The notes: a model not told the origin generated them from the sequence alone. Positions 10,628 through 47,363 are shown, counted from the first letter of the stretch. The stretch is DNA of 64,000 nucleotides from Balanoglossus misakiensis (GCA_040954595.2 CM082582.2:5316303-5380302), one strand, 5' to 3'. A program made the numbers and translations.

Positions 10628-10667
10628 TTAATCTACGATGCAGGAGGCCATATGAACTGAAATAAAA

Positions 10668-13600
10668 TCATGATAAGCACTCGGATAGCTTCTGAATTGA
10701 AAAGCCGGACGTCTGATAAAGGTAATCAAGCAGAAACACGGATATCATGTAATTGTCATAGAAGTCCGAGTCCAAACTCAAAATACCACCGGACGAATTG
10801 CGCAAACCGTCATGTATTAGTTTCAGCGCCTTGGGCACCTTCTCGACTTCACGGAATTGGTGGTAATTTTCAAATGTCAGCTCCGGCGATTTGGGATCTG
10901 AAAGAAACGTATTAAGTTATTGTTAGGGAAGTAGATGTACGTGACATGACTGTTGAATTAACAAGGCCCCAGACCGCAATAATTTGTGGCCGTCTTCTTG
11001 ACCCCTTAGTGACCTTACATCCTGGTTTTGTGTTGGTATGACATCATTCATCCTGCATGCAATGTTACATATACAACATCCATCTGTTTATAACAGAGAT
11101 AAATTATTTTTTTTGTTATAGAATGTTCACAAAGTCAATCGTATGGTTGACTGCTCCTAAGTTCAAAACTAAACATGGTAAACTTATACCAACGAAATCC
11201 CAGTTTGTAAAGGTCACGTTGGGGTCATTAAAGGTCATGGACTGTTGGTTTTAAGATAATCACTTGATTGGCTGTTTTTATGTTAAGCTTGTCTGACGTG
11301 AAAAACGTCGCCGCCGTTGAGTATATCCATCTTAAATTTTTTTATATTTACATAGTCAGTCGAAATGAGAGGTTGATAAAGTAATCAAAATGCTGCTGTT
11401 AGGGCTTTAATTACAGGTAAGTAATCGTTCGTTCATTCGGTCAGACAAGCAGATCGAGTGATTGGTTGATTGTTTGATTGATTAATTTTGTTGGTGTCAT
11501 CATTCATTTAACCATTAATGCATTATTTTTACCTTTTGGCGGGAAGGCTGCAGTTGGTTGTATAAGGCGTAACTCCGTTTGAGTAATGACCTTAGAGACT
11601 CTCGCACTCATCCCGGGAGGAAGAATATACCGAGCTTGGAGTCCAATATCTGACAGTCTTCTCTCTGCACTCACGACTGACAATCTTATCGAATTGTCAT
11701 ACTGATTTTCCCAATGACCCGGAGACATGGGCCCATCACATCGAATCCCAATCTCGTATTTTTCACTCCACTCTTTGACAAGACGTGGATATTCTTCCAC
11801 GAAGTCTCCAAACACAAATAGTGTCAGCGGAACGTCGGCCGGGTATGCCCCTATGGTACTGATCAGCTTCCGCGCCCTTTTGGCGTTCATTCCCACATCT
11901 ATGACAACAGACACGGCGGGCTTTCCTCGGTTTCTCCCGCAGCGGTTGATGACTTCTCCTACTTTACCGGGTGTTTTCTTTGGAATCTGAAAACAAAATC
12001 GCAATCAGGGATAATAAGTGTTTACACGTTGTCAGGGCGGTCAGCAAATCGACATAACCGTTCATATCCATGTACTAATATGCCTTATGAAATTCTAAAG
12101 TTTAATACCTTGGGTGCATGAATATTGTCAAAATCGCCATAAGCTTTCCTCTCTGCCGTCCAGCTGATCATTTTAGGCATTTTCTTGGCAACTTCGTCTT
12201 TGATTCTTGATTTTTCTTTTCTTGTTTCGCCAGTTGGGTGCCCCATATGATATTCTCCATAAAACCTTTATGAGACAAAACACAGCTGTATATTATCAAT
12301 TTCAACCCAGCAATCCGTTTTCGGACGCGGCAGCCTGCATTGCTCATTCTCATTGAAAACTGGGCAGGTTTTTACAAAATATCCAGACGATACCCCCCCC
12401 CCAAAAAAAAACCAAAAAAACAACAACAACAACAACAACAAAGAAACAAACAAAGAAACGAACAAAAAACTACAACAAAGAACTGACATAATACACGATC
12501 TCCAGTTTATAGACTGAGCATGTGCAGTCCAAATTGATCTTCCATATACTTAGAGACAAAGAAGCTAACTTTTGACATTGTTAAGGAGATTTTTTAGTCC
12601 TTTGGACCAACGCACTAATGTGATCACTATGTGTGCGCGTATGCCGTAGACAGTATTTATACGAAAACGCTTCAACCACTTTTCCTGAAATATTCTCCAA
12701 TGATGACTGTTACTTGGATTTTTTTTAATTGAAAAACCGAAGCCGGAAATTTGTGGGTTGATTGTCTGAAAAATACCAATAACAGTAAAAGCAAAAGACT
12801 ATAGCATTGAAGCGGATGTAGGTAATTACATATACCAAAAAGAACAAGAAGTAAACTTCACAAGTCGTAAAAACGAGCTTACTTGTCAATCCAGGCATAC
12901 GTGCCATCTTTGAGCATTTTCCGAAGGATGCCAAATTCAGCGCCCTCAACGTCGAGTTTAAAGATCACATAATCGTCCTTGTTGACGTTCATCTGTATCC
13001 AGGTTGACAAGTCCACAATGGGGATGACGTCATGGCGGGAAAGTTTTCTTACTCCACCATCTTCGTCATCCACACCTTCCTTACTGCTCACAAACAAGGA
13101 TCCGCCACCCCACTGCATGTCACGTTTTTTGTTGATTTTGCCAGGGAACCATGGCCCCTCGTTGTACGCTGTCATGTTCCCTGCCATAAAAAAACCAATA
13201 AACTTAGTTTCAATATATTTGTAATTACACTTGGTAATTTTCAAACTATTTTGGAGGGACGGGGTGGGATTTAACACTGATACAGGTATACTTTATCGAG
13301 GCGCAACTTTCAATCCCTAGTTCTCGCATTTGTAGGTGCTCCTCCTAGTCAAACAATTTAGGCTACTTGCAACAGCTTACCACCTGAGCTAATCTACATA
13401 GGGTAAAATTTGAGACACTATTTGCCTATGGTAAACACAGAGCATTAATCCTTTGAGTCGCTTGTATGGAAAGCCATGACTGTCTTCTGATGTGTGAAAA
13501 CTTTATGTAACCCAAATTAAACATTACATGAAGTTGAAATGCAATTATGTGGTGAGATTTTACCAATACCTGGTGAGGTCAAACCGATATATGGAGAGGT

Positions 13601-16600
13601 TTTATCATTACGTGATGACGAAATGCCACGATGTGGTGAGATTATTTCTTGAGAGGAGTCGTTTTAGACCGGCTCTCCTCAGCAAGTCGTCCATTTTGAC
13701 TTTTATCAATAGAAAAAGAGCGCCCTCTGTAACAGCGCCCTCGTCACATCATAAAGAAGTAACATCGCGTCAAGAAATAACCTCACCACATCGTGGCATT
13801 TCCTCATCACGTCAAGAAATAACCTCACCACATCGTGGCATTTCCTCATCACATCAAGAAATAACCTCACCACATCGTGGCATTTCCTCATCACGTCAAG
13901 AAATAACCTCACCACATCGTGGCATTTCCTCATCACGTCAAGAAATAACCTCACCACATCGTGGCATTTCCTCATCACGTCAAGAAATAACCTCACCACA
14001 TCGTGGCATTTCCTCATTACGTCAAGAAATAACCTGAAGTTATCTGATGAATATCAGCGGTTGAAGGATCGACAAAACCGAAAAAAAGTAAGTCAAGAAA
14101 TGGACAAATTGAAAACTAAGTTTACCGAAGCACAGAACCAAGCGCAGGACTATATACGAGCTAGAAAGGTGGACTCGTCAAGTACAGGATCAAGAAGTTC
14201 CAGCAAGGAGCATTTTCGACAGCAAAAGGAAAAGGAAGCCCGTCAGCAAGTAGAAAAGATCCAAGAAGAGGTCAGACGAAAAGAATCGGAACTCGAGTAT
14301 ATGAAGCAACAAGTGGAAAAAGAGAGTGCACGTCGCAAAAAGGAATTGGATGAACAAATGCGTTATGATTCTGAGCGTCTTCGAGCAGCTGAACAGGACC
14401 TGAAGGAAAGATATCGTGAACTAGAATATGAAATAGACACTGACATTGGACTAAAATGTAAGCCATCATCGGACATTGAAGCTTGTATCAGCGCGGGTAT
14501 GGGTGAGGTGACTCTTCATGGCAATACTCCACCACAGCAGGATCCGAAGGAAAAGCCTTTCCAAAGTAAAGGTATCGTACATTCTTCCAATACCACTTCA
14601 CATCAGGCATCAAATTCGGTTGCAATTGGTCAGGACTTGTGGAAACAACTTCAACGTGTATCAATTCCAATATTTTCGGGTGATAAGAGACTTTACGAAA
14701 GTTGGAAAGCAGCATTCTATGCATGCATCGACCAAGCCCCTGCAACGAAGACCAGGTTAATCTGTTGAAACACTGCGTGAATGGATAATTCAAGAAGCCG
14801 AATTCCAGACCATAGCAAGTGAAACAGTACAAGGACTTGCAAATGTTACCAGGAACGCGGAATATAGAAGAGGCAGGTCGAACACGCGGACATTCTTTGG
14901 AAGTGCTCAAGTGACTGAAAATGCCAAAAGCATGTCATTATACCAGTCGAAGGTCGTGTAAAGTGTGTGGAAAGCAATTTAAGAAGATGGCCATATCTCA
15001 AAGGTGGGAACTTACGAAACAACTTAGACTTTGTTATCGTTGCCTTGGAGATGACCACCAGGGGCGCCATGGATGTCGGGACACGCACAACAGACTACTG
15101 CACAGAAACTGGAATCAAAGTGGTCCACAAACACCAAGCCAAGGTAATAAAAACCAATATGTATCTTCTCAGAACAAAACAGCTGAACCCAATGCAACTT
15201 CGGACAATACAATCACTGATTCCAGAAGTGTGCCTCTACGTGTCACTGAGGGGGAGAATTGTGGTAATAGGGAGCGATTGCAGACAACGATGGTCTCCGA
15301 GTCGTCGGATGTACAACCTATAACATTGAGAACTGTAACTGTAATTCTGAAAACATGGCGGTCGTAAAATAAGAGCTAATGCTTTGCTTGATGGTGCCAG
15401 CACCGGAACTTATATAAACACTGATATTGCAGAAGACTTAGGACTACAGGCACATACCCAACTGATATATGTCAATGTGCTCAACGGACATGTGAAAACT
15501 TTTCAAACTACTCCATTAGAAGTTGGACTTGAGAGCATCAATGGAGACGTGGACACGAAGATCTGCACATTTACAACGGACAGAGTAACGGGTAACATGC
15601 GTGTGATAGACTGGAGATCTCGAAATGAAAAATGGTCTCATCTGAAAGGAATAGACTTTCCAAAGCTCGGCGCCAGGCCAATCGTTGATATTCTTATTGG
15701 TCTGGATTACGCTGACCTGCATTACTCCTTCAGGGACGTCAGAGGGAAACCAGGTGAGCCCATTGCACGACTTACACCATTGGGTTGGACTTGTATTGGC
15801 AATCCAGACGGTAACCAGGGACGTCCTCTACAAACGCACTTTTTAAGAACTTACTTTGTTCAAGACCAAACCAAGTTAGAAGACCTAAATTCTACTCTGA
15901 GGAAATTCTGGGAGATCGATAATCTACCTTGTCCAGCAAAAAAATTGAATGTGTCTCAGTCTAAGATCGAACTACACTAGAACTTGCCAACAGATCACTA
16001 AAGCTACAAAATGGCCGATACCAGGTGGGAATCCCATGGAGAGAAGATGCCCCAGAAGTGCCTGTTAACTATGATATGGCATTACGACGATTAGAGAACA
16101 CTGAGAAACGGTTAGTGAAGGATCCGCAAGTTGCCACAACATATTCATTGACAACTATACTTTGACTCGATACATTGAGAAGGGCTACATCCGAAAGGTT
16201 CCCCAAAGTGAGAGAAAACCAGAGAACAAATGGAGGTACGTGTCCGCAAAAGAAAACCCAGCTGACTTGGTTACTAGAGGGATAACGGCAATAGATGTAG
16301 CTCATGAAGATCTCTGGTGGAAAGGTCCAGAATTCCTTGCGAAATCTCCATCAGATTGGCCACAAAACCCTGTGACAAAAACAGCCGAGTCGGAAGACGC
16401 TGAGATGAAGAAAACTTATCAGCCAACAACCTTTGTTGTGAATAAACCCCAAATTAACAACCACTGTGGCCAATCAAAAGCCAAACCTGAGCAACACGCA
16501 AAAGATGAGCCAGCGGTTGTGGGTAAACTTGACACTGTACTACTGAGGCCCGACCAGTTTTCAAGTTGGACAAAACTGACGAGAACTCGAGCATGGATCT

Positions 16601-19600
16601 ATCAGTTTCTGAATAACTGTAGACATCCCAAAGAAGAACGAAGAAAAGGAGAATTACTTCCAGACGAAATAGAAGAAGCAGAAATAGTGATCATCAGGCG
16701 TATGCTGGCCGAATCATTTCCTGAAGAGTATTCATCACTCGTCCATAACAAGGAATTGCCAAAAAAGAGCAAGATACTCAGCCTTCGACCACGAATTGAT
16801 GAAGATGGTTTGATGAGATGTGACGACCGGTTAAGGTATGCGGACTACTTACCATATGATGTTCGTTATCCCGTCATTCTCCCTAGAAGAAACTGGGTCA
16901 CCAAACTGATAGTATAAAGCACTACCACGAACTTGGAGAACATACTGCTGGGACAAACCACACTCTATCAGCCTTATCGGCAAGATTTTGGGTCATCGCT
17001 GGACGTGAAGAAATCCGTCAGTGGGAGCATGAATGTGCGGAATGTCGACGACGCAAAGCCAAGGCAGCAAGTCAAGTTATGGCGCCACTACCTAGAATTC
17101 GATTGAAGATGCCTCTACGTGCATTTGCTAATGTAGCAGTGGATTATGCTGGTCCATTCATTACGATCCAGGGGCGTGGTAAACAAAGAACTAAACGTTA
17201 CTTGTGCTTATTTACCTGCTTGGCCACTAGAGCTGTTCATCTGGAAGTCGCGTATGGACTCGATACTGATTCATTTCTGAATGCCTTCTACAGGATGGTC
17301 AACCGTAGAGGACTTCCAAAGTGTGTGCTCTCTGATAATGGCACTAATTTCGTGGCTGCTGACAAGGAATTGAGAGAATTGGTCCAGCAAGTGGCTAAAG
17401 ACCAAGTCAGCAGATCAACAGCAAACCAAGGTATAAAGTGGAGCTTCAATCCTCCCTTAGCACCTCACTTTGGTGGCGTCCATGAGACCATGATCAAGGC
17501 AGCGAAGAGAGCAATCTATGCCATACTGAAGAATGCTGACATAACAGACGAGGAACTTTTAACGGCCGTGACAGGGGCGGAAGCACTCATTAATTCGAGA
17601 CCGATCACCTATCAATCTGCCAATCCAGATGACATTACACCTCTGACGCCAAACCACTTCCTACATGGTCAAGTTGGGGGACAGTTCGCTCCCGAATCCG
17701 TCGATACTACCGACTACACTCCCAGGAAAAGATGGCGAAGACTCCAAGAGCTGATGAAACACTTTTGGAAGAGGTGGATGGAGGAATGGTTACCTTCTCT
17801 AAATGTGCGTAAGAAGTGGTTCACCACCAAAAGGGACCTCCAAGTTGGTAACATTGTCCTTGTTATTTCACCGGGCACTCAACGTGGACACTGGCCCCTT
17901 GGACTTATAACGGACGTTCACCCTGGTCGCGATGGGCATGTACGCGTGGTAACCGTGAAGACCGGAGAAACGACGTTTCGGCGACCAATATCGAAAGTGT
18001 GCCCTCTGGAATTTTGACTTAAAGGTATACGGTCACCCATGGAAAATTAGCTATAGTTACCATAGCAAAATGATATCTAGCCAATCACAGATTTTCAGTG
18101 GGTGGCACACGCGAAAAAAAGAGCGCCACCGTATGTTCTTTAGAACGCTCAAATACTCCATTTCAGCCATATAAGGGTGTATGTACATTGGAGGTGACTG
18201 TATACCTTTAATACAGTTTTACAGACTTTCATGATAAGGACACTGAATTCTTTTTGCACAGGACTGATAGTGCTGAGTTTGTTTTTGAATTACTTTGGAC
18301 CAATGAAAAATACTTGGTTACTTTATGAAAACGTATTAACTGAACATTTTAAAACGTATGAAATTAAATTGACAGTTTTTGATTTAATTCAGTAAAAGTA
18401 AAAAAAATAATCAGTCTAAAAAAGTATAAAATAGTAAAATTCTCGAATCTTTTAAGGAATCAATATTTTCAACATTGATTGAGGGGGAGAATGGAGAAAA
18501 GAACTACTCCCGTCACTCTTAATTTGCATTTCAATACTTTATTTGAATATGAGAAAGGCCTGACAGTTTTGTCTCACTGTAGTTAAAGTTTTGGACTTAG
18601 AATTGTAAATAAGTTTGTGACTGAATGGGTCTATGGGTTCGTATTAGTTCGTTTTGGTTCGTATCCATGGTCTTATAAACCGTCGATTCGAGAGAAGACT
18701 GTGTTCTTTGTACTTCTTAGCAATATACACATTGGGTTAACATTTATTACATATAGGGTTAACATTTATTACATATAGGGTTAACGTTTATTACATATAG
18801 GGTTATCAAATAAAAAAGTTTTCATGTAGAATTAACGCTTTTTCATGTAGAATTAAAGTTTATTACATATAGGGTTAACGTTTATTACATGTAGGGTTAA
18901 TTAATAACGATTTTTTTCATGTAGAAGTAACGTTCTTTCATGTAGAATTAAAGTTTATTACATAGAGGGTTAACGTTTATTAGACAATGGGTTGCGAAGA
19001 GGTGTTAATCATTACACGAGCTCGGGTCTGGCCAGCAAAGTCGTCTCAAATCTGTGCCTGTGTGACCTCCATACTAGAGCTGGTCTCATCAACCCTTTTG
19101 ACAAGGTCGTTTTTAGCTCAGGTGTTCACACACACAAAGTTTAAACCCCGGTGCGGAAAGACCGGGGATTCGGATTAACGTGTGTTTGTATAGTTGTTTA
19201 TTTGGGAGTGGTCGTCGTGCAACTGTGTAATTGATCTCATGTACATAGAAAATATGGTAATTGAACACTTTACACCTCCACGCGATTGACAGCTGTTTGA
19301 ATGGCGTGGTTATTGTTTTCCAGGGACGCTTCTGAAAAGCACTGAAACCAGATTTCTCCCAAAATCATCGTTGTTTCAAAAGCTAGTGTACTTTTTCGTC
19401 GACAACTTTATGTTGTGTGTGTTTATAAAGCCAACTACTGTCGTTGTGTGGTGTAATTCTTTATGCTTGGACCAGTTTAGGCCGATTTTCATAGAGCCAA
19501 GATCGTTGGTGTTGTCTGTTGTCAGTCAAACGGCATTAAGATTCGCCACTGATTTGGGGGTCATTTAGGGACCATTCAGTTTTTACGGCTGGGGGGGGGG

Positions 19601-22600
19601 GGGTTGGCAAGTTTGTGTCATCGGTTTTCAAAATCAGGCCGACCCCCCCCCCTTCACCCAGGACCAAAAAATGATGACCCCCCTTTGACAGGCCAAAAAA
19701 TGTGATGACCCCCCCCCCCACGACGACGTGTCCCCCTCCCACATGAGAAAATTTTGTAAAATACGGTGCTCAAAGTTGCATTTTAATGAACTCAAAAGCA
19801 TATTAACTCAATGTTGGGGAGGACCAATTTTACTTTTGCCCCTCCCTTCAAAGTTAGCATCTGTGGGGGATGGAGTGGGCAAGTGCCATGCCCTGGTACA
19901 CTAGATGTGGCGAAGAATGAATGGGGTGGGTGTGACAAGTTTGTGTTATTGGTTTTCAAAATCATAAGAAAATTTTGTAAAATACAGTGCTAAAAGTTGC
20001 ATTTTAATGAACTCTAAAGCAAAATAACTCAATGTTGGGGAGGACCAATTTAACTTTTGCCACTCCACTCAAAGTAATCATCGGTGGGGTGGGGTAGTCT
20101 GCCCTGGTACACTAGACAAATCAGCCAATAAATGAAATGTGGCGAAGAATGAAGGGGGTGGGTTTGGGAGGGGGTGTCCCCCTCCCACATTAGAAAAAAT
20201 TGTAAAATAAAGGGCGCGAAACTGCAATTTTGTGGACTCAAAGCAAAAGTTCGGTGGCAAAAGTTTGTGACCCCCCTAAACGTTTAAAAAAACCAGATGA
20301 CCCCCTTTTGGAAACTATCGTCTAGCCAGCTAGCTACTTGAGGACAGCGAGAGGTCAATCGCTCTGACAGCTTCAACGCTCTATTCAGGACTGTGTTATT
20401 TATTGACTGTGCCTTCAAACGCGTGTAATTGGACTCGCCGATAGCAACGTTAACAGAGCCGTAACACGCGGCCGACTTGGCTAGCTCGTGACGGGTACAG
20501 TTTCCCAACATGACTTGAGAGGGGTTCCTCTGCCTGAAATATACGTAGATCAAACTTGGGCCCGCCGGTTATCGAGTTTACTGACCGACAGAAGGACGCA
20601 TGTCATAGAGCAAAAAAAAAAGCATTCCAAAAATGAACGACGGTTCACGGGGCTGTTAGGGACCGTTCAGTTTTTACGGCCGGGGGGGGGGCGGCAAAAT
20701 CCAGGGGGGGGGGGGCGTCACTTAAATTTTGAAGTCCAAAAGGGGGGGGGTCATCTGTTTTTTTTAAACGTTTAGGGGGGGGGTCACATACTTTTGCCAC
20801 CGAACTTTTGCTTTTGAGTCCACAAACTTGCAGTTTCGCGCCCTTTATTTTTCACACCCGCCCCCTCCATTTCATGTTTTGCTGGTTTGTCTAGTGTACC
20901 AGGGCAGAGTGCTTGCCACCCCAACCCCACCGATGATAATATTTAACAAAGTAAATACATAAAGGAGAATAATCGTTTAAACCATTTCGCATAACTGATA
21001 TATAGTTTCGCGCTGCATCTTCTATATACAAGAAGTTAAATATAAATGATGTCATGACGAAGATAACGCCAAATCTTCTAACTTTAAGTGGAGTGGCAAA
21101 AAGTAAAATTGATCCTCCCAAACATTGAGATAATTTGATTTTGAGTTCATTAAAATGCAAATTTGCGCTACATATTTTACAAAAAATTTTTTTTTTTTGG
21201 GGGGGGGGGTCATCATATTTTTGGGTCTGTCAAAGGGGGGATCGTCATTTTTTGCTCCTGGGTGAAGGGGGGTCGGCCTGATTTTGAAAACCGATGACAC
21301 AAACTTGCCACCCCCCCCCGGCCGTAAAAACTGAACGGTCCCTTATGTCTGTTTTCTAGTTTTTGTGCTTTCAATACTCAAAATGCTTGCTGTTGAAACA
21401 AGCGTCTCAGCCAATCACGACACTGTATCTGTGGCACTGCTGCACAGATATAAAAATGATAATACATCTTAGAAAGCGACATCAATTTTGGTGACGTAAT
21501 CTTTATACAAAAACAAATTTCTCCCAGCTACGTCAAGGCGCCAAAGTTGTCCGAGTTTCTCCCTTCAACCATAGACCCTGAAGGAAGGGGATCTTCCTCT
21601 AGGGTATACTAGCTTCAAGCACTGCATGCCTAGAGTATTTTTATGTCATCTTCCATAGCAATGATGATGAAATCACCCTTCAAGCAATCTTACCGTTTTT
21701 ATCCGAAACGCCCACAGGACAGTGAAGAGTATGACCTTTGTCGCCAAAGTAAGCAAAATAAGGCGCCAGCCCCGCATCTATCTCAAACGAGTGAATGATG
21801 TAATCGTCTGCATCCGGGTATGTTTCTCGAAAGAGATTGACAGTGGAAGCAACGTTGGCTCCACAATCCAGAAACATCTTTCTTGGTTTCCGAGTCCTAC
21901 AATGAAATTAATAATCCGAATAATAATAGGATCGATTTCAACGAAAAATTAGCAGCTGTCCTTAGTAGACAAGTAATATTCTAATTAAACTGTGACTTTT
22001 GTCTTGAAAAAAAATGTCCTTAATAGAGAGGTGTCCTGATTAGAGTGGTGTCCGTAATGACAGGTTTCACTGTGTATGTTTTGGTCGCAAAGAATGACTT
22101 TGGGTTATAATTTTCCGAATATACATTTATAAGTTGATTAAAATCGAGTTTCCTCGCAAGAAAAACAACCTGAGCATGCGCACACATCCGAATCTCACGA
22201 TATTTCTTACCCCTGGCAGTCATACTCATAATATGTCATAGCAAAGACAGTATTTAAAGAAAGAGAAGTTATTACAGGTCGATGCTTTATGTAATGATCC
22301 CGACTTTCGACCAGTTCCAAAATGTGTCCAATCAAATATGCGGATCCACACAGCAAAATCTTAACTGAATAGTGAATGTTAGCTGAGGCAATGCAATGCA
22401 CACACATACATGTACACAGTCCTCGATGTGTTGAACTTTGGTGGCCAGACGACATGGGGTTAATTAAATGTAAATTTGACAAGAAGGCGTCTAAACCATT
22501 TAAAAAAAAAATAATAAATTCATTAATTTTGAAATTTGACCTTTCAGAGGTTCCGAGTCGTAAATCCGGAAGGTGAAATAACGATGTCAAAAATACAAGA

Positions 22601-24406: not shown

Positions 24407-24789
24407 TTGCCTTACAGGAAATGAATAAACGGTGTTTACCATTTATTCATTTTGGCGGGAGTTTTACTCTGAGACTCATATCCTACAAACGAAATGGAAG
24501 TTGTGTGTCGTTGAATATTGATTCTCTATATATCCACAAGTAGAATAACATAAACGGTGTCTTGGATCAAACATAATTAATGGGAAAGGCCAGCGAGAGA
24601 GAGACTTTGTCCTTTAAAGGGCGAACTCTTGGTAGGGCCCTATCGAGAAAAAATCAATAAAATGTGGGCGTGGCAAAAGCTCTGACGCCACTATATTGTT
24701 ACAGCAATTGACCTCTCACCTCCGAAATGGAACACGCACTCAAAATGTAAACATCTGCACGTGTGTACTTTCATTTCATACACGATACT

Positions 24790-26645: not shown

Positions 26646-26943
26646 TTGTCAATCCAAGCATACGTGCCGTCTTTCAACATTTTCCGAAGGATACCGAATT
26701 CAGCGCCCTCAACGTCGAGTTTAAAGATCACATAATCGTCCTTGTTGACGTTCATCTGTATCCACGTTGACAAGTCCACAATGGGGATGACGTCATGGCG
26801 CGAAAGTTTTCTTTCTCCACCGTCTTCGTCATCCACACCTTCCTTACTGCTCACAAACAAGGATCCACCACCCCACTGCATGTCACGTTTTTTGTTGACT
26901 TTGCCAGGGAACCATGGCCCCTCGTTGTACGCTGTCATGGTCC
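26646..26943 (-). pseudogene. Orphan exon 3 of the methyltransferase gene (copy D) with a destroyed splice acceptor
   Basis: 298-bp exon, frame open, flanked by paralogous intron sequence (~26510-27905); acceptor reads atggcAT|GG versus atggcAG|GG in A/B/C; no other exons nearby. Confidence 0.88.
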
Positions 26944-29035: not shown

Positions 29036-29194
<159 letters not shown>

Positions 29195-29363: not shown

Positions 29364-32195
29364 ATGGCAAAAGGGGGGCGGATTTGCATCATTTTCGCCA
29401 TGTTGGGAAGCTTTGCTCTGGGCTGTATGCTGGTTAACCTAGAAATACTGCGCTGTCCAAGAGACCGACGTAAGGCTGCCGTTGACATTACCGATCGCCA
29501 GAACACACTTACTATACCCCCGGCGCATGACAGGTAAAACACAGCTCATCTCGACATTGTGTGGACAGAAATTATCGTTTGCCCACGTCCTTGTGACGAC
29601 ACAAAAATTGCCCGCCCTTTGCCCACACTCTAACAAGGCTGATATATCATCCACTTGAAGGAGAATCAAAATTAATGAATTTATTATTATTTTAAAAAAT
29701 GGTTCAGACGTCTTCTTGTCAAATTTACTTTTAATAAACCCCATGTCGTCCGGCCACCAAAATTCAACACATCGAGGACAGTGTATGTGTGTGCATTGCA
29801 TTGCCTCAGCTAACATTCACTATTCAGTTAAAAAAACGCTAGATTTTGCTGTGTGGATCCCTATATTTGATTGAGCACATTTTGGAACTGGTCGAAAGTC
29901 GGTCGTTTTTCTTGCGAGGAAACTCGATTTTAATCAACTTATAAATGTACATTTGGAAAATTATAACCCAAAGTTATTTTTGCGACCAAAACATACACAG
30001 TGAAACCTGTCATTACGGACACCTCTCTATTAAGGGCAAATTTTTCAAGACAAAAGTCACAGTTTAAATAGAATATTACCTGTCTATTAAGGACAGCTGC
30101 TAATTTTTCGTTGAAATCGATCCTATTATTATTCGGATTATTAATTTCATTGTAGGACTCGGAAACCAAGAAAGATGTTTCTGGATTGTGGAGCCAACGT
30201 TGCTTCCACTGTCAATCTCTTTCGAGAAACATACCCGGATGCAGACGATTACATCATTCACTCGTTTGAGATAGATGCGGGGCTGGCGCCTTATTTTGCT
30301 TACTTTCGAGATAAAGGCCATACTCTTCACTGTCCTGTGGGCGTTTCGGATAAAAACGGTAAGATTGCTTGAAGGGTGATTTCATCATCATTGCTATGGA
30401 AGATGACATAAAAAATACTCTAGGCACGCAGTGCTTGAAGCTAGTATACCCTAGAGGAAGATCCCCTTCCTTCAGGGTCTATGGTTGAAGGGAGAAACTC
30501 GGCCAACTTTGGCGCTTTGACGTAGGTGGGAGAATTTTGTTTTTGTATAAAGATTACGTCACCAAAATCGATGTCGCTTTCTAAGATGTATTATAATTTT
30601 TATATCTGTGCAGCAGTGCCACAGATACAGTGACGTGATTGGCTGAGACGCCTTTTTTTAATTTATGCAAGCCATGGTTAAATTAAGCAGTAATAAAATT
30701 GGCTAATAAAATTGCTGGAATATCAGCATTACAGGTGTAATGAAAAATCTCATCAATCAAACGGATATAATCACCAATGTTTCTCCCCCGGACAAAGGCC
30801 GCTTGGGAGTCACCAATTAAGTAGGGCAAAACTTTCTCAATACGTTTAACAAGGCATCTTGAAGCAGGCTTCATGTCAACATTCATAAGGGAGATTGGTC
30901 TCCAATTTTTCAGATAGAGTTGATCCTTCCCAGGTTAAATCAATCAGAGTTATGACACTCTGTTTCTGAGAGTTTGAAAATTCCCCCGTTCTGTGATGTA
31001 ACCATGATTGAGAGAATTCAAAACTAAATTCCCCACCTGTGGCCAAAAAGCCACGTAAAATTATTTTGTAAGGCCATCATTGCCGGGGCTTTTGTTGTCT
31101 GGAAGGGAGAGAAGAACGTACAGAGAAAACTTCCCCAGGGGTCAAAGGACCCTCACACAAAACTTTATTATTCTCTGACAACATTGGTAAATTTTGCATC
31201 CAGGAAATAATGCACATCGTTGGAGTTTGTGGCGCGCCTTGAGTAAAGCTTGGCATAAAACTGCTTAATTCCACACAAAATATTCTTTGGGTTTTCTATA
31301 GTTGTATACTCATCTTTCTATACATATACTTTGTGTGTGTGGACGCAAGCGACTTTAAGGATTAATGCTCTGTTTTTACCATAGGAAAATAGTGTCTAAT
31401 TTTGTCCCCTGTCTGAACCTGGTATTATTAACAAACGCGCAAATGGTGCCAAGCTGCTAGTGAGGCTTTTTCTAAAACAGGTCGACCGAGTCGGCATGGG
31501 TCACTGGTCAACGTAACCAGCATTGGTCGCTTACAAAGGCGCCAATATATACAGCCAAGTCTATACAAAGTCGTACGCAGTATGTTCCATTCTTATCGAC
31601 AGGCACAGCAACTGCTATAGAGTCTAGTTTACAAACATCGCAACTGGCCTAAATTGTTTGGCTAGGAGAAGCACCTACTAATGCGAGAACCGGGGACTGA
31701 AAGTTACGTCTTTTAGTTTCCTCGATAAAGTACACATGTATCAGTGTTAAATCCTACCCCGTCCCTCCAAAATTGTTTGAAAATTACCGAGTGTTTGACA
31801 AATATATTGAGACTAAGTTTATTATTTTCATGGCAGGGACCATGACAGCGTACAACGAGGGGCCATGGTTCCCTGGCAAAGAAAACAAACAACGTGACAT
31901 GCAGTGGGGTGGTGGATCCTTGTTTGTGAGCAGTAAGGAAGGTGTGGATGACGAAGATGGCGGAAAAAGGAAACTTTCGCGCCATGACGTCATCCCCATT
32001 GTGGACTTGTCAACGTGGATACAGATGAACGTTAACAAGGACGATTATGTGATTTTTAAGCTCGACGTTGAGGGCGCTGAATTCGGTATCCTTCGGAAAA
32101 TGTTGAAAGACGGCACGTATGCTTGGATTGACAAGTAAGCTCGTATTTACGACTTGTGAATTTCCGTTCTTGTTCTTTTAGGTATATGTAATGTA

Positions 32196-32244
<49 letters not shown>

Positions 32245-34009
32245 GGGGGGGAGGGTATTGTCTGGATATTTTGTAAAAACCTGCCCAGTTTTCAATGAGT
32301 TGGGCAATGCAGGCTGCCTCGTCCGAAACCGGATTGCTCTGTTGAAATTGATAATATACAGTTGTGTATTGTCTCATAAAGGTTTTATGGAGAATATCAT
32401 TCGACGCACCCTACTGGCGAAACAAAAGAAGAAAAAATAAGAATCAAAGCCGAAGTTGCCAAGAAAATGCCTGGAATTATCAACTGGGCGGCAGAGAAGA
32501 AAGTTTATGGCGATTTTGACAATATTCATGCACCCAAGGTATTAAACTTTAGAATTTCATAAGGCATTTTAGTACATGGATTTGAACGGTTATGTCGATT
32601 TGCTGACTGCCCTGACAACGTGTAAACACTTATTATCCCTGATTGCGATTTTGTTTTCAGATTCCAAAGAAAACACCCGGTAAAGTAGGAGAAGTCATCA
32701 ACCGCTGCGGGAGAAACCGAGGAAAGCCCGCCGTGTCTGTTGTCATAGATGTGGGAATGAATGTCAAAAGGGCGCGGAAGTTGATCAGTAGCATAGGGGC
32801 ATACCCGGCTGACGTTCCGCTGACACTATTTGTGTTCGGAGACTTCGTGGAAGAATATCCGCGTCTTGTCAAAGAGTGGAGTGAAAAATACGAGATTGGG
32901 ATTCGATGTGATGGGCCCATGTCTCCGGGTCATTGGGAAAATCAGTATGACAATTCGATAAGATTGTCAGTCGTGAGTGCAGAGAGAAGACTGTCAGATA
33001 TTGGACTCCAAGCTCGGTATATTCTTCCCCCCGGGATGAGTGCGAGAGTTTCTGAGGTCATTACTCAAAGGGAGTTACGCCTTATACAACCAACTGCAGC
33101 CTTCCCGCCAAAAGGTAAAAATATTGAATGCAGTGAATGGTCGGATGGATGCATTAATGGTTAAATGAGTGATAACACCAACAAAATTAATCAATCAAAC
33201 AAATCAGCCAATCACTCGATCTGCTTGTCTGACCGAATGAACGAACGATTTCTTACCTGTAATTAAAGCCCTAACAGCTGCCATTTTGATTACTTTATCA
33301 ACCCCTCATTTCGGCTGACTATGTAAATATAAACAAGTTTTAAGATGGATATACTCAACGGCGGCGACGTTTTTCACGTCAGACAAGCTTAACATAAAAA
33401 CAGCCAATCAAGTGATTATCTTAAAACCAACAGTCCATGACCTTTAATGACCCCAACGTGACATTTACAAACTGGGATTTCGTTGGTATAAGTTTACCAT
33501 GTTCAGTTTTGAACTTAGGAGCAGTCAACCATATGATTGACTTTGTGAACATTCTATAACAAAAAAAAAAAAAATTATCTCCGGTATAAACAGATGGATG
33601 TTGTATATGTAACATTGCATGCAGGATGAATGATGTCATACCAACACAAAACCAGGATGTAAGGTCACTAAGGGGTCAAGAAGGCGGCCACAAATTATTG
33701 CGGGTTGGGGCCTTGTTAATTCAACAGTCATGTCACGTACATCTACTTCCCTAACAATAACTTAATACGTTTCTTTCAGATCCTAAATCGCCGGAGTTGA
33801 CATTTGAAAATTACCACCAATTCCGCGAAGTCGAGAAGGTGCCCAAGGCGCTGAAAATAATAGATGACGGTTTGCGCAATTCGACCGGTGGTATTTTGAG
33901 TTTGGACTCGGACTTCTATGACAATTACATGATATCCGTGTTTCTGCTTGATTACCTTTATCAGACGTCTGGCTTTTCAGTTCAAAAGCTATCCGAGTGC
34001 TTATCATGA
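29364..34009 (+). CDS. FkbM-family methyltransferase + NodB-like fusion protein, copy B (503 aa)
   Basis: Exons 29364-29533, 30156-30358, 31837-32134, 32382-32538, 32661-33114, 33780-34009 = 1512 nt, GT-AG, continuous frame from MAKGGRICIIFAMLGSFALGCMLV (signal anchor) to GFSVQKLSECLS*. Confidence 0.9.
30660..31215 (-). mobile_element. L1/Tx1-clade LINE reverse transcriptase fragment in intron 2 of copy B
   Basis: Frameshifted CEGPLT, KSPGNDGL, NWRPISLMNVDMK, LIGDSQAAFVRGRNIGDYIRLI; not seen in copies A or C. Confidence 0.85.
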
Positions 34010-35560: not shown

Positions 35561-36422
35561 GGTAAGGTCCGGGGGACTGTTATAGCTTGTAACGCCCTCA
35601 CACGGCATTGTGGGGAAATTCACCTGTAACGCAACTGGCATGATTGACAGTTAAAGGGGAAATCCGCTGTAGCTGATTTCTACATAATTTGGTAGCTTTG
35701 ATGTCTCTCTTTCAGAAAAAAACATATTCGCCATGTATAGGTCGCGCGATTTTTTACAAAATCTAGGGAAAGTTGGCAGAATTTCCAATATGGCGTTTAC
35801 TGTAATTTGAATCATGGGAAAAAAAGCGCCAGGACCAACTTCCGCCCACCTTGGTGTGGGTGATACCATTTTCCGATTGGTGTCACTGTGTCACAAGCTA
35901 AGCGTATATGCATATTTTTCATGGGTTATAGCTCATGAAAACTGTCAATAGATCACAAATTTTCGACTTTGCTGATGATTGTTTATCAACTGATGCAACA
36001 AACAAACAATAGCTATGAAAATACGCCTAGTCTGTCGCCCAGTGACACCAATCGGAGAATGGTATCACCCACACCATGGTGGGCGGAAGTTGCTCCTGGC
36101 GCTTTTTTTCCCATGATTCAAATTACAGTAAACGCCATATTGGAAATTCTGGCAACTTTCCCTAGATTTTGTAAAAAATCGCGCGACCTATACATAGCGA
36201 ATATGTTTTTTTCTGAAAGAGTGACATCAAAGCTACCAAATTATGTAGAAATCAGCTACAGCGGATATACTCATTGACCAATCATATTGTCACGCAGTAT
36301 CGGGTCAACAGGTGACCTTTACGCCGCCCATATGCAAATTTTACTACGTCATTTTCTGCATGCATAATTATATCAAGGCAAGGCTTACAAGCTATAACAG
36401 TCCCTCGGGCCTTACGGCCCTC
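35561..36422. repeat. Outer inverted repeat pair enclosing the 35655 MITE
   Basis: GTAAGGTCCGGGGGACTGTTATAGCTTGTAA (35562) mirrored by TTACAAGCTATAACAGTCCCTCGGGCCTTAC (36385); GAGGGCCGAAGGCCCG motif tandemly duplicated at 35467/35524. Confidence 0.65.
35655..36266. mobile_element. Second copy of the 9948 Kolobok-like MITE family, ~235-bp TIRs, right tip lost
   Basis: ttaa|AGGGGAAATCCGCTGTAGCTG...; arm 35655-35890 mirrored at 36041-36266. Confidence 0.88.
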
Positions 36423-36434
36423 GCATACATACTG

Positions 36435-36435
<1 letters not shown>

Positions 36436-36465
<30 letters not shown>

Positions 36466-36507
36466 CATACATACATACATACATACATACATACATACAT
36501 ACATACA

Positions 36508-36539
<32 letters not shown>

Positions 36540-36610
36540 CATACATACATACATACATACATACATACATACATACATACATACATACATGCATACATGC
36601 ATACATACAT
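36436..36610. repeat. (TACA)n microsatellite
   Basis: Direct reading. Confidence 0.98.
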
Positions 36611-37653: not shown

Positions 37654-40600
37654 TCATGATAAGCATTCGGATAGCTTTTGAATTGAAAATTCGGACGTCT
37701 GATAAAGGTAATCAAAGAGAAAGACAGATATCGAGTAACTGTCACTGAAATCTGAGTCCAAACTCAAAATACCACCGGCCGAATTGCGTAAACTTTCATC
37801 TATTAGTTTCAGCGCCTTGGGCACCTTCTCGACTTCGCGGAATTGGTGGTAATTTTCAAATGTCAGCTTGGGTGATTTAGGATCTGAAAGAAACGTATTA
37901 AGTTATTGTTAGGGAAGTAGATGTACGTGACATGACTGTTGAATTAACAAGGCCCCAGACCGCAATAATTTGTGGCCGTCTTCTTGACCCCTTAGTGACC
38001 TTACATCCTGGTTTTGTGTTGGTATGACATCAATCCATCATGCATGCAATGTTACATATACAACATCCATCTGTTTATAACAGAGATAATTTATTTTTTG
38101 TTATAGAATGTTCACGAAGTTAACAATATGGTTGGCCACTCTTAAGCTTAAAACGAAAAATGATATACTCACAACAACGAAATCCCAGATTGTAAAGGTC
38201 ACGTTGGGGTCATTAAAGTGCATGGACTGTTGATTCTTAAGATAATCACAATATCGACTGCTATTATGTTTTGCTTGTCTGACGTGAAAAACGTCGCCTT
38301 TGAGTATAACCAGTTTCAAACTTGTTTATGTTTAAATAGTCAGCCGAAAAGAGTGGTTGATTATTAAATAATAACACATGATAGCGAGGGCAACACCACG
38401 ATTTGAAGCCTGCACGAGGGATGGTGATCTCTGACCATAATATTGATGATGCCCGAGTCCCAGGCGAGGATATCATCAATATTGTGGTCAGAGAGCACCA
38501 GCCCGAGGACAGGCTTCAAATCGTGATGTTGCCCGAGTAACAAACAAACAAACAAACAATCAAACAACCAGCCAAGTGATTGGCTGATTGTTTGATTGAT
38601 TAATTTTGTTGGTGTCATCATTCATTCAACCATTAATGCATTCATCTGTTCATTCACTGCATTTAAGTTTACCTTTTGGCGGGAAGGCTACAGTTGGTTG
38701 TATAAGGCGTAACTCCCTTTGAGTAATGACCTCAGAGACTCTCGCACTCATCCCGGGGGGAAGAATATACCGAGCTTGGAGTCCAATATCTGACAGTCTT
38801 CTCTCTGCACTCACGACTGACAACCTCAACGCATTCTCATACTGCATTTCCCAATGACCCGGAGGCATGGGCCCATCACATCGAATCCCGATCTCGTATT
38901 TTTCACTCCACTCTTTGACAAGACGTGGATATTCTTCCACGAAGTCTCCGAACACAAATAGTGTCAGCGGAACGTCAGCCGGGTATGCCCCTATGCTACT
39001 GATCAACTTCCGCGCCCTTTTGACATTCATTCCCACATCTATGACAACAGACACGACGGGCTTTCCTCGGTTTTTCCCGCAGCGGTTGATGACTTTTCCT
39101 ACTTTACCGGGTGTTTTCTTTGGAATCTGAAAACAAAATCGCAGACAGGGATAATAAGTGTTTACACGTTGTCAGGGCGGTCAGTAAATCGACATAATCG
39201 TTCATATCGATGTACTAAAATGTCTTATGAAATTTTAAACTTTCATACCTTGGGTGCGTGTACTTCGTCAAAATCGTCGTAAAGTTTTTTGTCTGCCTCC
39301 CAGTTGATGATGCCAGGCATTTTCTTGGCAACTTCGTCCATGATTCTTAATTTTTCTTCTTTTGTTTCGCCAGTAGGTTGCGACAAATGATAATCTCCAT
39401 AAAACCTTTATGAGACAAAACACAACACTGTGTGTTATCAATTTAAACCCAGCAATCCGTTTTCGGACGCGGCAGCCTGCATTGCTCATGCTCATTGAAA
39501 ACTGGGCAGGTTTGACAAAATATCCAGACAATACCCAACAATTAACAAACTATAAAATAAAGCTATAACATAATTTGGGATCATAATTGCTCAGCCCAGT
39601 AGCATACACACTCTATATATTTATCACTTTGTTTTGTTTTGATCGAATAATGACATAAATACCACGTTCTCCCAAAGTACAATGAATACTTATCTTTTTG
39701 TACGCATAATCGTGTTGTATTTGGATATTTTGTTATTGAAAAACCGAAGCGGGGAAAATTGGTAGGTTGACTGTCTGACAAATACCAATAACGGTAAAAT
39801 CGAAATAATATACGAATGAAGCGGTTGCAGGTAAATACATATGAATAAAAGAACAGGAGAAATTAACTAGTTGTAAATACTATAGTTCTTCGACACGACC
39901 GAGCTTACTTGTCAATCCAGGCACACGTGCCATCTTTCAGCATTTTCCGAAGGATGCCAAATTCAGCGCCCTCAACGTCGAGCTTAAAGATCACATAATC
40001 GTCCTTGTTAACGTTCATCTGTATCCACGTTGACAAGTCCACAATGGGGATGACGTCATGGCGGGAAAGTTTTCTGTTTCCACCATCTTCGTCATCAACA
40101 CCTTCCTTACTGCTCACAAACAAGGATCCACCACCCCACTGCATGTCACGATGATTGTTGATTTTGCCAGGGAACCATGGCCCCTCGTTGTACGCTGTCA
40201 TGGTCCCTGCCATGAAAATAATAAACTTAGTCTCAATATATTTGTCAAACACTCGGTAATTTTCAAACAATTTTGGAGGGACGGGGTAGGATTTAACACT
40301 GATACATGTGTACTTTATCGAGGAAACTAAAAGGCGCAACTTTCAATCCCTGGTTCTCGCACTAGTAGGTGCTTCTCCTAGCCAAACAATTTAGGCCAGT
40401 TGCGATGTTTGTAAACTAGACTCTATAGCAGTCGCTGTGCTATGTAACCCATGACCCATGCCGACTCGGTCGACCTTTTTTAGAAAAAGCCTCAATAGCA
40501 GCTTGGCACCATTTACGCGTTTGTTAAATAACACCAGGTTCAGACAGGGGACAAAATGAGACACTATTTCCCTATGGTAAAAACAGAGCATTAATCCTTA

Positions 40601-43307
40601 AAGTCGCTTGCGTCCACACACACAAAGTATATGTATAGAAAGATGAGTATACAACTATAGACAACCCAAAGAATATTTTGTGTGGAATTAAACTCACGAA
40701 TCGCAACAGTTTACCACGGTAGACCTTAGCTAATCTCGGAAATAGATCGGCAATTTGGCACATAGAGCCAACAAAAGCATTTCAAAACTGAACCATGTGA
40801 GAATGTCCGCTGTGTTTAGATGATTATCGCGATCGCGGCGTCGACAACGTTTTGCCGTGGCGTCGTAACCGTATAATTGCAACAGCCGATCGTTTGTGAT
40901 GGTTTGCTAAGACGATTGAAATGTGTCAAGCGCGTAGTAAAGTAAATCATTATGTATTACTAATAAACAGAATTCAGAACGACGGTTTACGGGGCTGTTA
41001 TGTCTGTTTTCTTTAGTTTTTGTGCTTTCAAGACTCAAAATGCTTGCTGTTGATATGCCTGTCATAGTAGATAGTATATTTTGATATTAAATTCTTCGTT
41101 CATCGTTATGTTTTTTCTATTAGTATACATCTTGTCCTCTATTTTGCTTTATCCTTTATTTTTTTATTTTTGCCTGAGTCAAGTTGTTTGTGTTTCGCCT
41201 GGGGGTGAGGCATGCCGGCCCGGTCGACATGTTTTTTTAAAAAAAAACTTTGTATAGACTTGGCTATATATATTGGCGCCTTTGTTAGCGATAAATGCTG
41301 GTCACATTGACCCATGACCCCTGCCGGCTCGGTTGACCTGTCTCGAAAAAGCCTCAATAGCAGCTTGGCACCATTTGCGCGTTTGTTATACCAGGTTCAG
41401 CCAGGGGACAAAATTAGACACAGAGCATTAATCTTTAGAGTCGCTTGCGCCCCTCCCCCCCCACACAAAGTATATTTATAGGCGCTGAGGCTGTGGATAT
41501 ATAGTGAATCAACGTTCAAATACACACAACATCCAACCAACTTGTAGGCACCAGAGTGAAAAACTCGCCAAAATGCATAATCGGTGTTTACCATTTATTC
41601 ATTTTGGTGGGATTTTTACTCTCATATCCTACAAACGGGAAGGAAGTTGTGTCGTTGAATGTTGATTCTCTATGTATCCACATGTAGAATAACATTAACG
41701 GTGTCTTGTATCAAACCATAGACCCTAGAGAAAGGGTCTATGATCAAACATAATTAATGGAAAAAGGCCTGCGAGAGAGAGGCTTTGTCCCTTTAAATGA
41801 AATAAGCCCTAGAACAAGCATTTTAAGACTCTCAAGAAATACTGTAGTCATACATTTTCCCTGCTGCATGCTAGTTCAGGGGCCCGTTTTACCACTGCCA
41901 GCAGTATTTTACCATCGCTCTCGTCCAATCAGAATGGCGGACGGTAGCATGATATAATATAATAACTCTAAGAAAGCGACATCAATTTTGGTGACGTAAT
42001 CAAAAACAAAATTCTCCCAGCTACGCCAAGGCGCCAAAGTTGTCCGAGTTTCTCCCTTCAACCATAGACCCTGAAGGAAGGGGATCTTCCTCTAGGGTAC
42101 TAGCTTCAAGCACTGCATGCCTAGAGTATTGTTTTATGTCATCTTCCATAGCAATGATGATGAAATCACTCTTCAAGCAAACTTACCGTTTTTATCCGAA
42201 ACGCCCACAGGACAGTGAAGAGTATGGCCTTTATCTCGAAAGTAAGCAAAATAAGGCGCCAGCCCCGCATCTATCTCAAACGAGTGAATGATGTAATCGT
42301 CTGCATCCGGGTATGTTTCTCGAAAGAGATTGACAGTGGAAGCAACGTTGGCTCCACAATCAAGAAACATCTTTCTTGGTTTCCGAGTCCTACAATGAAA
42401 TTAATAATCCTAATAATAATAGGATCGATTTCAACGAAAAATTTGCAGCTGTCCTTAATAGACAGGTAATATTCTATTTAAACTGTGACTTTTGTCTTGA
42501 AAATTTTGTCTTTAATAGAGAGGTGTCCGTAATGACAGGTTTCACTGTGTATGTTTTGGTCGCAAAGAATAACTTTGGGTTATAATTTTCCGAATATACA
42601 TTTATGAGTTGATTAAAATCGAGTTTACTCGCAAAAAAACAACAACCTGTGCATGCGCACACATCCGAATCTCACGATATTTCTTACCCCTGGCAGTTAT
42701 ACTCATAATATGTCATAGCAAAGACAGTATTTAAAGAAAGAGAAGTTATTACAGGTCGATGCTTTATGTAATGATCCCGACTTTCGACCAGTTCCAAAAT
42801 GGGTTCAATCAAATATACGGATCCACACAGCAAAATCTTAACTGAATAGTGAATGTTAGCTGAGGCAATGCAATGCACACACATACACTATCCTCGATGT
42901 GTTGAATTTTGGTGGCCGGACGACATGGGGTTTATTAAATGTAAATTTGACTAGAAGACGTCTAAATCATTTTTTAAACAATTAATAAATTCATCAATTT
43001 TGATTCTCCTTCAAGTGACTGATACATCAGCATTGTTAGTGAGTAGGCAAAGGGCGAGTAGTTCTTCAATTAGTGACGTCACAAGGACGTGGGCAAACGA
43101 TAATTTCTGTCCACACAAGGTCGAGGTCGTTACTTACCCGTCATGCGCCGGGGGTATAGTAAGGGTGTTCTGGCGATCGGTAATGTCAACGGCAGCCTTA
43201 TGTCGGTCTCTTGGGCTGTGCAGTATTTCTAAGTTAACCAGCATACAACCCAGGGCAAAGCTTCCCAACATGGCTAAAATGGTGCAAATCCGCCGTCCAT
43301 TTGCCAT
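37654..43307 (-). CDS. FkbM-family methyltransferase + NodB-like fusion protein, copy C (503 aa)
   Basis: Exons 43307-43138, 42389-42187, 40206-39909, 39405-39249, 39126-38673, 37883-37654; same exon lengths as copy B, GT-AG, no stops seen; GDYH instead of GEYH. Confidence 0.9.
38387..38534. repeat. ~150-bp hairpin insertion specific to intron 5 of copy C
   Basis: GGGCAACACCACGATTTGAAGCCTG...CAGGCTTCAAATCGTGATGTTGCCC; not seen in A or B. Confidence 0.8.
41717..41742. mobile_element. 26-bp transposon remnant with a perfect 7-bp TSD
   Basis: atcaaac|CATAGACCCTAGAGAAAGGGTCTATG|atcaaac; empty site CTTGTATCAAACATAATTAATGG in the sister MITE at ~8972. Confidence 0.88.

Positions 43308-47331: not shown

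Positions 47332-47363
<32 letters not shown>

Follow-up and report, generated by a model that had tools for sequence, protein, structure and literature searches.

The window analysed here is a stretch of 64,000 nucleotides (nt) from Balanoglossus misakiensis (GCA_040954595.2, CM082582.2:5316303-5380302), with positions counted from its first letter, and it holds three open paralogous genes, copies A, B, and C. Each gene has six exons, and each of the encoded proteins (502, 503, and 503 amino acids, aa) joins a methyltransferase domain of the FkbM type to a barrel with the fold of carbohydrate esterase family 4 (CE4/NodB), behind a predicted N-terminal membrane anchor. On balance, we consider it likely that the family to which these proteins belong works as a Golgi-lumen sugar O-methyltransferase dependent on S-adenosylmethionine (SAM), as predicted from its sequences and from structure models. 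The genes and their exons are as follows.

22997-10668, minus strand: copy A gene, 502 aa
22831..22997, minus strand: copy A exon 1, with the ATG, a basic N-terminus, the hydrophobic anchor, and the stem; one codon fewer than in copies B and C
21694..21896, minus strand: copy A exon 2, with FLDCGAN and HSFEID
12883..13180, minus strand: copy A exon 3, with the MQWGGG insert and KLDVEGAE
12109..12265, minus strand: copy A exon 4, with GEYH, the final methyltransferase helix and strand, and the linker
11533..11986, minus strand: copy A exon 5, first part of the CE4 barrel
10668..10897, minus strand: copy A exon 6, end of the CE4 barrel and stop
29364-34009, plus strand: copy B gene, 503 aa
29364..29533, plus strand: copy B exon 1, with anchor residues 7-25 (mean hydropathy 2.2)
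30156..30358, plus strand: copy B exon 2, with D67, G69, N71, and E95
31837..32134, plus strand: copy B exon 3, with D201, E203, and E206; PF05050 at E 1.6e-4, 22.2 bits, for the exon alone
32382..32538, plus strand: copy B exon 4, with E228, H230, and W259; the most variable exon
32661..33114, plus strand: copy B exon 5, CE4 barrel with C292, V307 at the metal Asp, and R358 and P362 at the metal His pair; PF01522 at E 0.014
33780..34009, plus strand: copy B exon 6, with the conserved R443-E446 insert, D470 at the catalytic His, D472, D475, C501, and stop
43307-37654, minus strand: copy C gene, 503 aa
43138..43307, minus strand: copy C exon 1, from the spliced gene model
42187..42389, minus strand: copy C exon 2, tblastn-supported
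39909..40206, minus strand: copy C exon 3, tblastn-supported
39249..39405, minus strand: copy C exon 4, with E228D at an otherwise invariant position
38673..39126, minus strand: copy C exon 5, tblastn-supported
37654..37883, minus strand: copy C exon 6, with M478S at a well-conserved position

All 15 introns are of the GT-AG type, exons 2-6 have the same lengths across the three copies, and a tblastn search with a Ptychodera flava homolog as query independently recovered exons 2-6 of each copy. The intact triplicate of paralogs of about 503 aa that a sequence-only reading of the window had described is thus borne out. The motifs it quoted all occur in the window, though some copies deviate: copy C has GDYH for GEYH (Glu being the residue in all 69 homologs) and PTVAF for PTAAF, and GFSVQKLSECL is matched exactly only in copy B. 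Residues D67, G69, N71, E95, D201, E228, H230, C292, R358, and D470 are given in copy B numbering, and D82, N86, E243, C307, R373, and D483 in that of the homolog P0003.

As proteins, the copies are 89-93% identical, and their ratios of non-synonymous to synonymous substitution rates (dN/dS) are 0.35-0.45. By region, the ratio is 0.17 in exons 2-3 (p = 1.5e-6) and 0.37 in exons 5-6 (p = 5e-4), and both domains are under purifying selection. Divergence among the paralogs peaks in exon 4, beside E228/H230, with 72% identity as against 97% and 93%, and with 29 non-synonymous and 6 synonymous changes. Positive selection on this exon is unsupported, its dN/dS being 1.18 (p = 0.83 against neutrality). 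Since variability was highest in exon 4 in each of the five paralog sets tested, its divergence may reflect relaxed constraint.

A methyltransferase domain joined to a CE4-type barrel

Scores for PF05050 are 34.5-38.9 bits in five full-length P. flava proteins (cut-off 22.7), and the family lies above this cut-off, as best or second family, in six of seven P. flava homologs; P0001 also passes, at 24.3 bits. By these Pfam scores we class the proteins as members of the FkbM family, in agreement with the sequence-only reading. All 69 homologs share residues D82, G84, N86, E110, D216, E221, E243, and H245 (P0003 numbering), and the class I SAM-binding motifs at D82, G84, N86, E110, and D216 are present in copies A, B, and C. 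With a model of the N-terminal domain (P0106), Foldseek returned the FkbM structure 2PY6 as its top match (E 3.7e-4) and its sole match at E<=0.001, and a sequence search of the Protein Data Bank turned up no relative among methyltransferases with E<1. The animal domain contains a conserved insert, from W150 to G166, that has no counterpart in stand-alone microbial relatives, and 65 of 215 methyltransferase columns are conserved at 90%, compared with 36 of 208 barrel columns. Models were made for homologs rather than for the spliced window proteins; P0003 shares 171 of 214 residues (80%) with copy B in the methyltransferase domain and 153 of 208 in the barrel. A complex prediction for the two P0003 domains with SAM, in which the alignment was unused, scored 0.00 in two runs, a score that carries no verdict.

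The model of P0003, built from a 69-row alignment (predicted local distance difference test 90; predicted template modelling score 0.83), gives the C-terminal half the fold of a CE4 enzyme. Residues 302-516 match BA0150 (4M1B) with a Z score of 23.0 and a root-mean-square deviation (rmsd) of 2.1 Å over 192 aligned residues (Foldseek E 7e-9). In addition, the barrel profile matches Bc1960 at E 3e-5, hhalign gives 96-98% to 11 bacterial CE4 sequences, and the Atlas search with the C-terminal part returned CE4 clusters, so that the NodB fold proposed earlier is supported by model, Foldseek, and profile search alike.

The canonical catalytic residues are lost across the family. In a profile alignment to 11 bacterial CE4 proteins, the metal Asp column has Asp in none of the 69 homologs (Val or Ile instead), the first metal His column has Arg in 68, and the second is mostly Pro (His in seven of 69, Pro in the window copies). 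The register of motif 2 is ambiguous by three residues, and no His stands on either site in the window copies regardless. The motif-3 Arg is found in 0/69 homologs and the motif-5 His in 0/69, the latter position being Asp in 63. The motif-1 base Asp is also found in 0/69, yet the window copies keep D306, the first Asp of TFDD, within VIDVG; as the column lacks Asp in the 69 homologs, D306 is not a family feature. Because the metal, base, motif-3, and motif-5 residues are gone, the barrel is dead as a canonical deacetylase, and judged by these residues the family does not belong among the active CE4 deacetylases. The earlier claim of a catalytically dead domain therefore holds for the canonical residues family-wide, and it needs amending for the Asp that VIDVG retains in the window copies. 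Polar residues at the old active site are kept from acoels to amphioxus (R373 in 68, D483 in 63, D485 in 67, and D488 in 65 of 69 homologs), and a barrel insert around D458-P463 is conserved (D458 in 64/69).

Of the 69 full-length homologs (a set that differs by three rows from the folded alignment), 61 have an N-terminal segment of hydropathy at least 1.6, and 49 of these 61 are more basic before it than after it, which fits the type II-like anchor noted from the window sequence. The window anchor spans residues 7-25, and none of the 75 anchor and stem columns is conserved at 90%. From hydropathy, a type II topology is predicted, with a short basic cytosolic tail, one anchor, and a stem. The near-invariance of C307 (69/69 homologs, and 13/13 mollusc-type rows) and C514 (68/69) suggests a lumenal disulfide. 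A sequon at N141 is found in 49 of 69 homologs, and the overall sequon count is 2.25 compared with 1.98 in shuffled sequences.

Family range and microbial relatives

A search with exon 5 found seven P. flava proteins (68-73%). A P. flava profile matched 129 proteins, 120 of them listed, and all 117 named rows among those listed are from hemichordates, starfish, crinoids, a brittle star, or amphioxus; three further listed rows group with a protein of the acoel Symsagittifera. A second profile search covered 1.84 billion representatives, and the best 150 of its 4,790 matches were listed, fragments among them. No sea urchin, sea cucumber, tunicate, or vertebrate is named among the matches listed (120 of 129, and best 150 of 4,790). 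The Atlas search returned one cluster only, the family's own, with 80 members, which is eukaryotic. Two-domain proteins of 492-508 aa are also encoded on contigs of 1.9-2.3 kilobases (kb; P0257, P0209, and P0267), so the evidence for the fusion goes beyond gene models. Three environmental members (P0131, P0136, and P0160) have intact motifs and are 34-45% identical to every named animal group.

A quick methyltransferase-domain tree (103 rows, 214 columns, midpoint root) places the window copies in one clade (99) that is sister to five P. flava paralogs (99), and the window lineage, near Ptychodera, therefore likely had a recent triplication of its own. Window and P. flava copies expanded separately, the 15 starfish rows form one clade, and animal and microbial rows are separated (100), the root being placed by midpoint only. 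Paralogs per genome are many, for example seven Patiria rows among the matches listed, and Asterias rubens has two listed members (XP_033635769.1 and XP_033628947.1) with computed masses of 57.2 and 59.9 kDa. In two Branchiostoma belcheri gene models (P0092 and P0118), a piece of galactose-3-O-sulfotransferase (PF06990) is joined to a family member, which suggests that the two genes are neighbours.

Among the matches listed, a distant two-domain form occurs in the molluscs Haliotis, Gigantopelta, Argopecten, Potamilus, and Pinctada. Its 13 rows have lost D82, N86, E110, E243, and H245 as well as the barrel Arg/Asp residues, and these homologs (P0177, P0180, P0187, P0200, P0209, and relatives) retain the Cys pair and the two-domain arrangement with both catalytic motif sets gone. 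By its residues, we take the mollusc form to be a conserved double pseudoenzyme. The persistence of such a protein is what would be expected if the whole family were non-catalytic or a secreted glycan-binding protein, with methyltransferase motifs kept for structure or for sensing SAM or S-adenosylhomocysteine, and by hydropathy a cleaved signal peptide is indistinguishable from an anchor. We regard this as very unlikely, as none of the SAM-type and putative catalytic residues varies among the 69 deuterostome and acoel-type members, microbial relatives have these residues too, and exons 2-3 have the low dN/dS given above.

The mollusc form also bears on what the barrel does. The sequence-only reading would have the dead barrel bind N-acyl sugars and present them to the methyltransferase, a 'reader-writer' step that is purely conjectural. 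The barrel may be a true, if putative, glycan binder, to which we give a chance somewhat short of even. It is close to an even matter that the family is a glycan O-methyltransferase in which the methyltransferase domain picks the acceptor and the barrel is a structural, oligomerisation, or spacer module, an explanation that concerns the 'reader' step only. Microbial relatives of about 190 aa lack CE4 (a CE4-profile match in 0/239 loci), the methyltransferase domain has its own conserved insert, the paralogs diverge most in exon 4, and many conserved barrel positions are glycines, prolines, or hydrophobic residues, all of which would suit a structural module. However, the divergence of exon 4 may be plain relaxed constraint, and the polar residues of the former active site persist from acoels through to amphioxus. 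Since in molluscs these barrel Arg/Asp residues are lost together with the SAM motifs, they seem to be tied to methyltransferase function.

On the microbial side, the closest relatives stand alone at about 190 aa and have DCGxN, SFE, KLDxEGAE, ExH, and the final Trp in common with the animal domain, and some of the nearest are fused to glycosyltransferase family 2 (GT2). Their neighbours (94 open reading frames in 19 loci) include glycosyltransferases, sulfotransferases, other methyltransferases, and nucleotide-sugar enzymes, a setting that supports the glycan-related role suggested in the first place. In L007, L008, and L016, a NeuB-family synthase or cytidylyltransferase adjoins the FkbM relative. 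We counted such neighbours in 176 loci, obtained from 239 by way of 230 with a domain hit and 198 with at least 2.5 kb of flank, after near-duplicate removal. With falling similarity to the animal domain, a NeuB-/NeuA-like gene lay within 4 kb in 5/10, 4/25, 1/21, 2/42, and 4/78 loci. Split at 80 bits, a threshold picked after the data were seen, the counts are 9/35 loci at or above it and 7/141 below (p = 0.0008), and 6/25 and 7/111 (p = 0.015) once the metagenome loci that prompted the idea are removed. A GT2 control gave 11/35 and 60/141 (p = 0.25). Viral contigs L083, L097, L100, L124, and L148 carry NeuB-family synthases and FkbM genes in glycosylation clusters, with two synthases each in L097, L100, and L148.

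No prokaryotic or viral methyltransferase-CE4 fusion was found among the matches listed from five scans, three of them limited (8, 13, and 2 of 64 parts), and the CE4-half profile found nothing in the 239 microbial loci. The fusion might instead be a relic of a NodB/NodS-like pair, with N-methylation of a free sugar amine made by a separate deacetylase, and human NDST1 does have a transferase fused to a deacetylase domain of related fold (Z 11.0). We hold this to be the least probable of the explanations considered, because the domain is of the FkbM type, a mainly O-methylating family, and not of the NodS type, because the barrel is dead in 69/69 members, and because the scans yielded no prokaryotic form.

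Starfish make steroid glycosides, and acorn worms make halogenated phenols and indoles. Lineage-specific tandem expansions are typical of chemical-defence genes and FkbM itself uses a small carrier-bound substrate, both of which would fit a secretory O-methyltransferase whose substrates are small metabolites used in defence or signalling, such as these phenols and indoles or the sugars of the steroid glycosides. This is improbable in our view, since acoels, amphioxus, and echinoderms share the family but are not known to share any such metabolite, the microbial relatives lie in glycan clusters, and it is a carbohydrate-enzyme fold that is fused to the methyltransferase.

Other features of the window

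26646..26943, minus strand: orphan exon-3 copy, with AT for AG at the acceptor and no other exons nearby
13755..18017, plus strand: broken BEL/Pao-type retroelement within copy A intron 2, with protease-like, integrase, and DUF5641 pieces in differing frames
13720-14056 (approximate): tandem repeat of 21-nt period
35650-36278: inverted repeat between copies B and C, with arms of 265 nt (93%) and a spacer of 99 nt; related sequence also at 10232-10631
467-1192, minus strand: pentraxin-domain exon (PF00354, E 2e-33)
4408-5910, minus strand: rhodopsin-type G-protein-coupled receptor in a single open reading frame (PF00001, E 2e-45)
46305-46598, minus strand; 47969-48151, minus strand; 57855-58022, plus strand: MIB/HERC2-domain exons
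51904-52137, minus strand: von Willebrand factor A (vWA) exon
54614-55030, plus strand: look-alike vWA piece
59768-60019, plus strand: WWE exon
62245-62893: tandem repeat, period about 215 nt
63614-64000: tandem repeat, period about 70 nt

The orphan exon 3 is a partial duplication remnant. Copy A intron 2 is 8,513 nt long and the BEL/Pao-type element inside it is antisense to the gene; no pair of long terminal repeats was found for this remnant (13755-18017). Neither this long intron nor the orphan exon figures in the sequence-only reading. Positions 46305-60019 probably hold a second duplicated, inverted gene pair.

Proposed function and known systems

In the predicted Golgi-lumen sugar O-methyltransferase, the FkbM domain would use SAM to methylate a hydroxyl of a glycolipid or glycoprotein sugar, with sialic acid as the likeliest site. 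Residues D67, G69, N71, E95, and D201 would hold SAM, E228 and H230 would act at the acceptor hydroxyl, and a C292-C501 disulfide would close the barrel. Most speculatively, the remodelled pocket (R358, D470, D472, D475, and the R443-E446 insert) might help to hold an anionic glycan acceptor. Sialic acid or deaminoneuraminic acid (KDN) is the leading candidate acceptor, though only tentatively, with circumstantial support from the family's taxonomic range and the microbial gene neighbourhoods.

According to passages of one review (PMC6994554), starfish have 8-O-methyl sialic acids together with an 8-O-methyltransferase activity, and B. belcheri has methylated KDN; the family is present in starfish and amphioxus, both with reported O-methyl sialic acids. 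The same passages place O-8 methylation in starfish and sea cucumbers and sulfation in other echinoderms, and part of a second review gives 8-O-methyl sialic acids under starfish but 8-O-sulfo forms under sea-cucumber gangliosides (PMC8228791), so that the two differ on sea cucumbers. Sialic acid 8-O-methylation is described, in a section of PMC3509529, as mostly echinoderm, nearly gone in higher animals, and a possible stop to chain elongation, and an excerpt of PMC4699235 gives the C8 methyl as crucial for the neuritogenic activity of a starfish ganglioside glycan. For nematodes, part of a 2023 paper states that the fucose methyltransferase of C. elegans and the nematode glycan methyltransferases are unidentified (PMC7614267). 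Sialic-acid genes of microbial affinity are presented as deuterostome novelties in a portion of Simakov 2015 (PMC4729200) that leaves FkbM unmentioned, and a term search of two of its supplements gave 0 mentions of FkbM. An amphioxus gene 'fkbmc' is named solely as an insertion site in a passage of PMC12905397, and a clam FkbM-domain gene is infection-responsive in a passage of PMC9125321; neither passage makes a tie to the family. The portions of PMC9382459, PMC11865545, PMC6724515, and PMC4393008 that were consulted hold nothing on the enzyme. In the literature searched, mostly open-access, we found no characterised protein with this architecture, as the sequence-only reading had supposed, nor any gene behind the starfish sialate 8-O-methyltransferase.

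Several observations weigh against this interpretation or its parts. P0003 falls narrowly under the TIGR01444 cut-off (36.6 against 37.7) and P0021 further (31.2), and VIA-align gave FkbM no lead over other Rossmann folds (2PY6 Z 8.6; DNMT2 Z 10.4). The many paralogs per genome suggest several acceptors rather than one. The purified A. rubens sialate 8-O-methyltransferase is said to be membrane-bound, with bands near 58 and 62 kDa, and the match of the two A. rubens members to these masses, which speaks for the interpretation, is weak evidence. Among the microbial loci, the viral ones alone give 6/24 and 3/40 for NeuB/NeuA (p = 0.07) and 4/24 and 3/40 for NeuB only (p = 0.41). An epimerase control is enriched as strongly (18/35 and 26/141, p = 0.0001), which makes the NeuB/NeuA enrichment nonspecific; a NeuB/NeuA-like gene is lacking near 26 of the 35 closest relatives; and the NeuB-like neighbours of the top loci score under the N-acetylneuraminate synthase cut-off. 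With the neighbourhood counts tempered by these controls, the post hoc threshold, and the synthase scores, support is good for a glycan acceptor and modest for a nonulosonate one. No glycan data for hemichordates or acoels were found in the literature, and sea cucumbers are absent among the named listed matches, though O-8 methylation is given for them in part of PMC6994554.

A wider scenario, which we consider unlikely as a whole, would identify the family with the sialate O-methyltransferase of animals: in an early bilaterian, a deacetylase barrel would have been fused to an FkbM gene taken from a nonulosonic-acid cluster of microbes, the Arg/Asp pocket would read sialylated glycans, and the gene would have been kept and multiplied in starfish, crinoids, acorn worms, amphioxus, and acoels, become doubly dead in molluscs, and been lost in vertebrates. 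If true, the vertebrate loss would explain the near-disappearance of sialic-acid methylation in higher animals. Sugar O-methylation is recurrent in invertebrate glycans and its enzymes are poorly known; databases label the family 'uncharacterized' or 'FkbM domain-containing' only, and Pfam misses the CE4 half. The two A. rubens proteins are specific clones for testing the starfish activity, and they make it directly testable which protein underlies a long-known and apparently uncloned activity. Given the chain-stop proposal and the neurite-promoting role of 8-O-methyl, the enzyme would also serve as a synthetic tool.

Each kind of domain is already known, and we found no description elsewhere of the architecture predicted here. 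With FkbM/Methyltransf_21 (PF05050, TIGR01444, and 2PY6), the best Foldseek match, the family has the DCGxN, SFE, KLDxEGAE, and ExH motifs in common, whereas the N-terminal anchor, a 30-residue conserved insert, and the CE4 barrel are additions, and the nearest microbial relatives are soluble and of about 190 aa. The same barrel is found in BA0150 (4M1B), Bc1960 (4L1G), an Aspergillus chitin deacetylase (CDA, 2Y8U), and BA3943 (7BKF, titled 'pseudoenzyme'), with Z 20.6-23.0 and rmsd 2.1-2.6 Å over about 190 residues. Unlike these CE4/NodB proteins, the family replaces the metal Asp, both metal His, the motif-3 Arg, and the catalytic His, and is a methyltransferase-fused, predicted membrane protein of animals. 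The A. rubens SAM:sialate 8-O-methyltransferase also carries out SAM-dependent sugar O-methylation, in a species with two family members, but it is known as an activity, the subject of Bergwerff 1992 (PMID 1576206) and Kelm 1998 (PMID 9490063), with no gene found in the literature searched, and its identity with the family is hypothetical. Human NDST1 (9F6Z), a Golgi type II glycan enzyme, likewise combines a deacetylase-type barrel with a group transferase, as a distant fold match only; it differs in being an active deacetylase with a sulfotransferase as the transferase. Plant Golgi GXM/DUF579 proteins are type II lumenal enzymes that O-methylate acidic glycan sugars and belong to a different Pfam family lacking a CE4 domain, and DUF579 gave no match in the Pfam scan of the P. 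flava homologs. By analogy, the family is predicted to work like these plant Golgi glycan O-methyltransferases.

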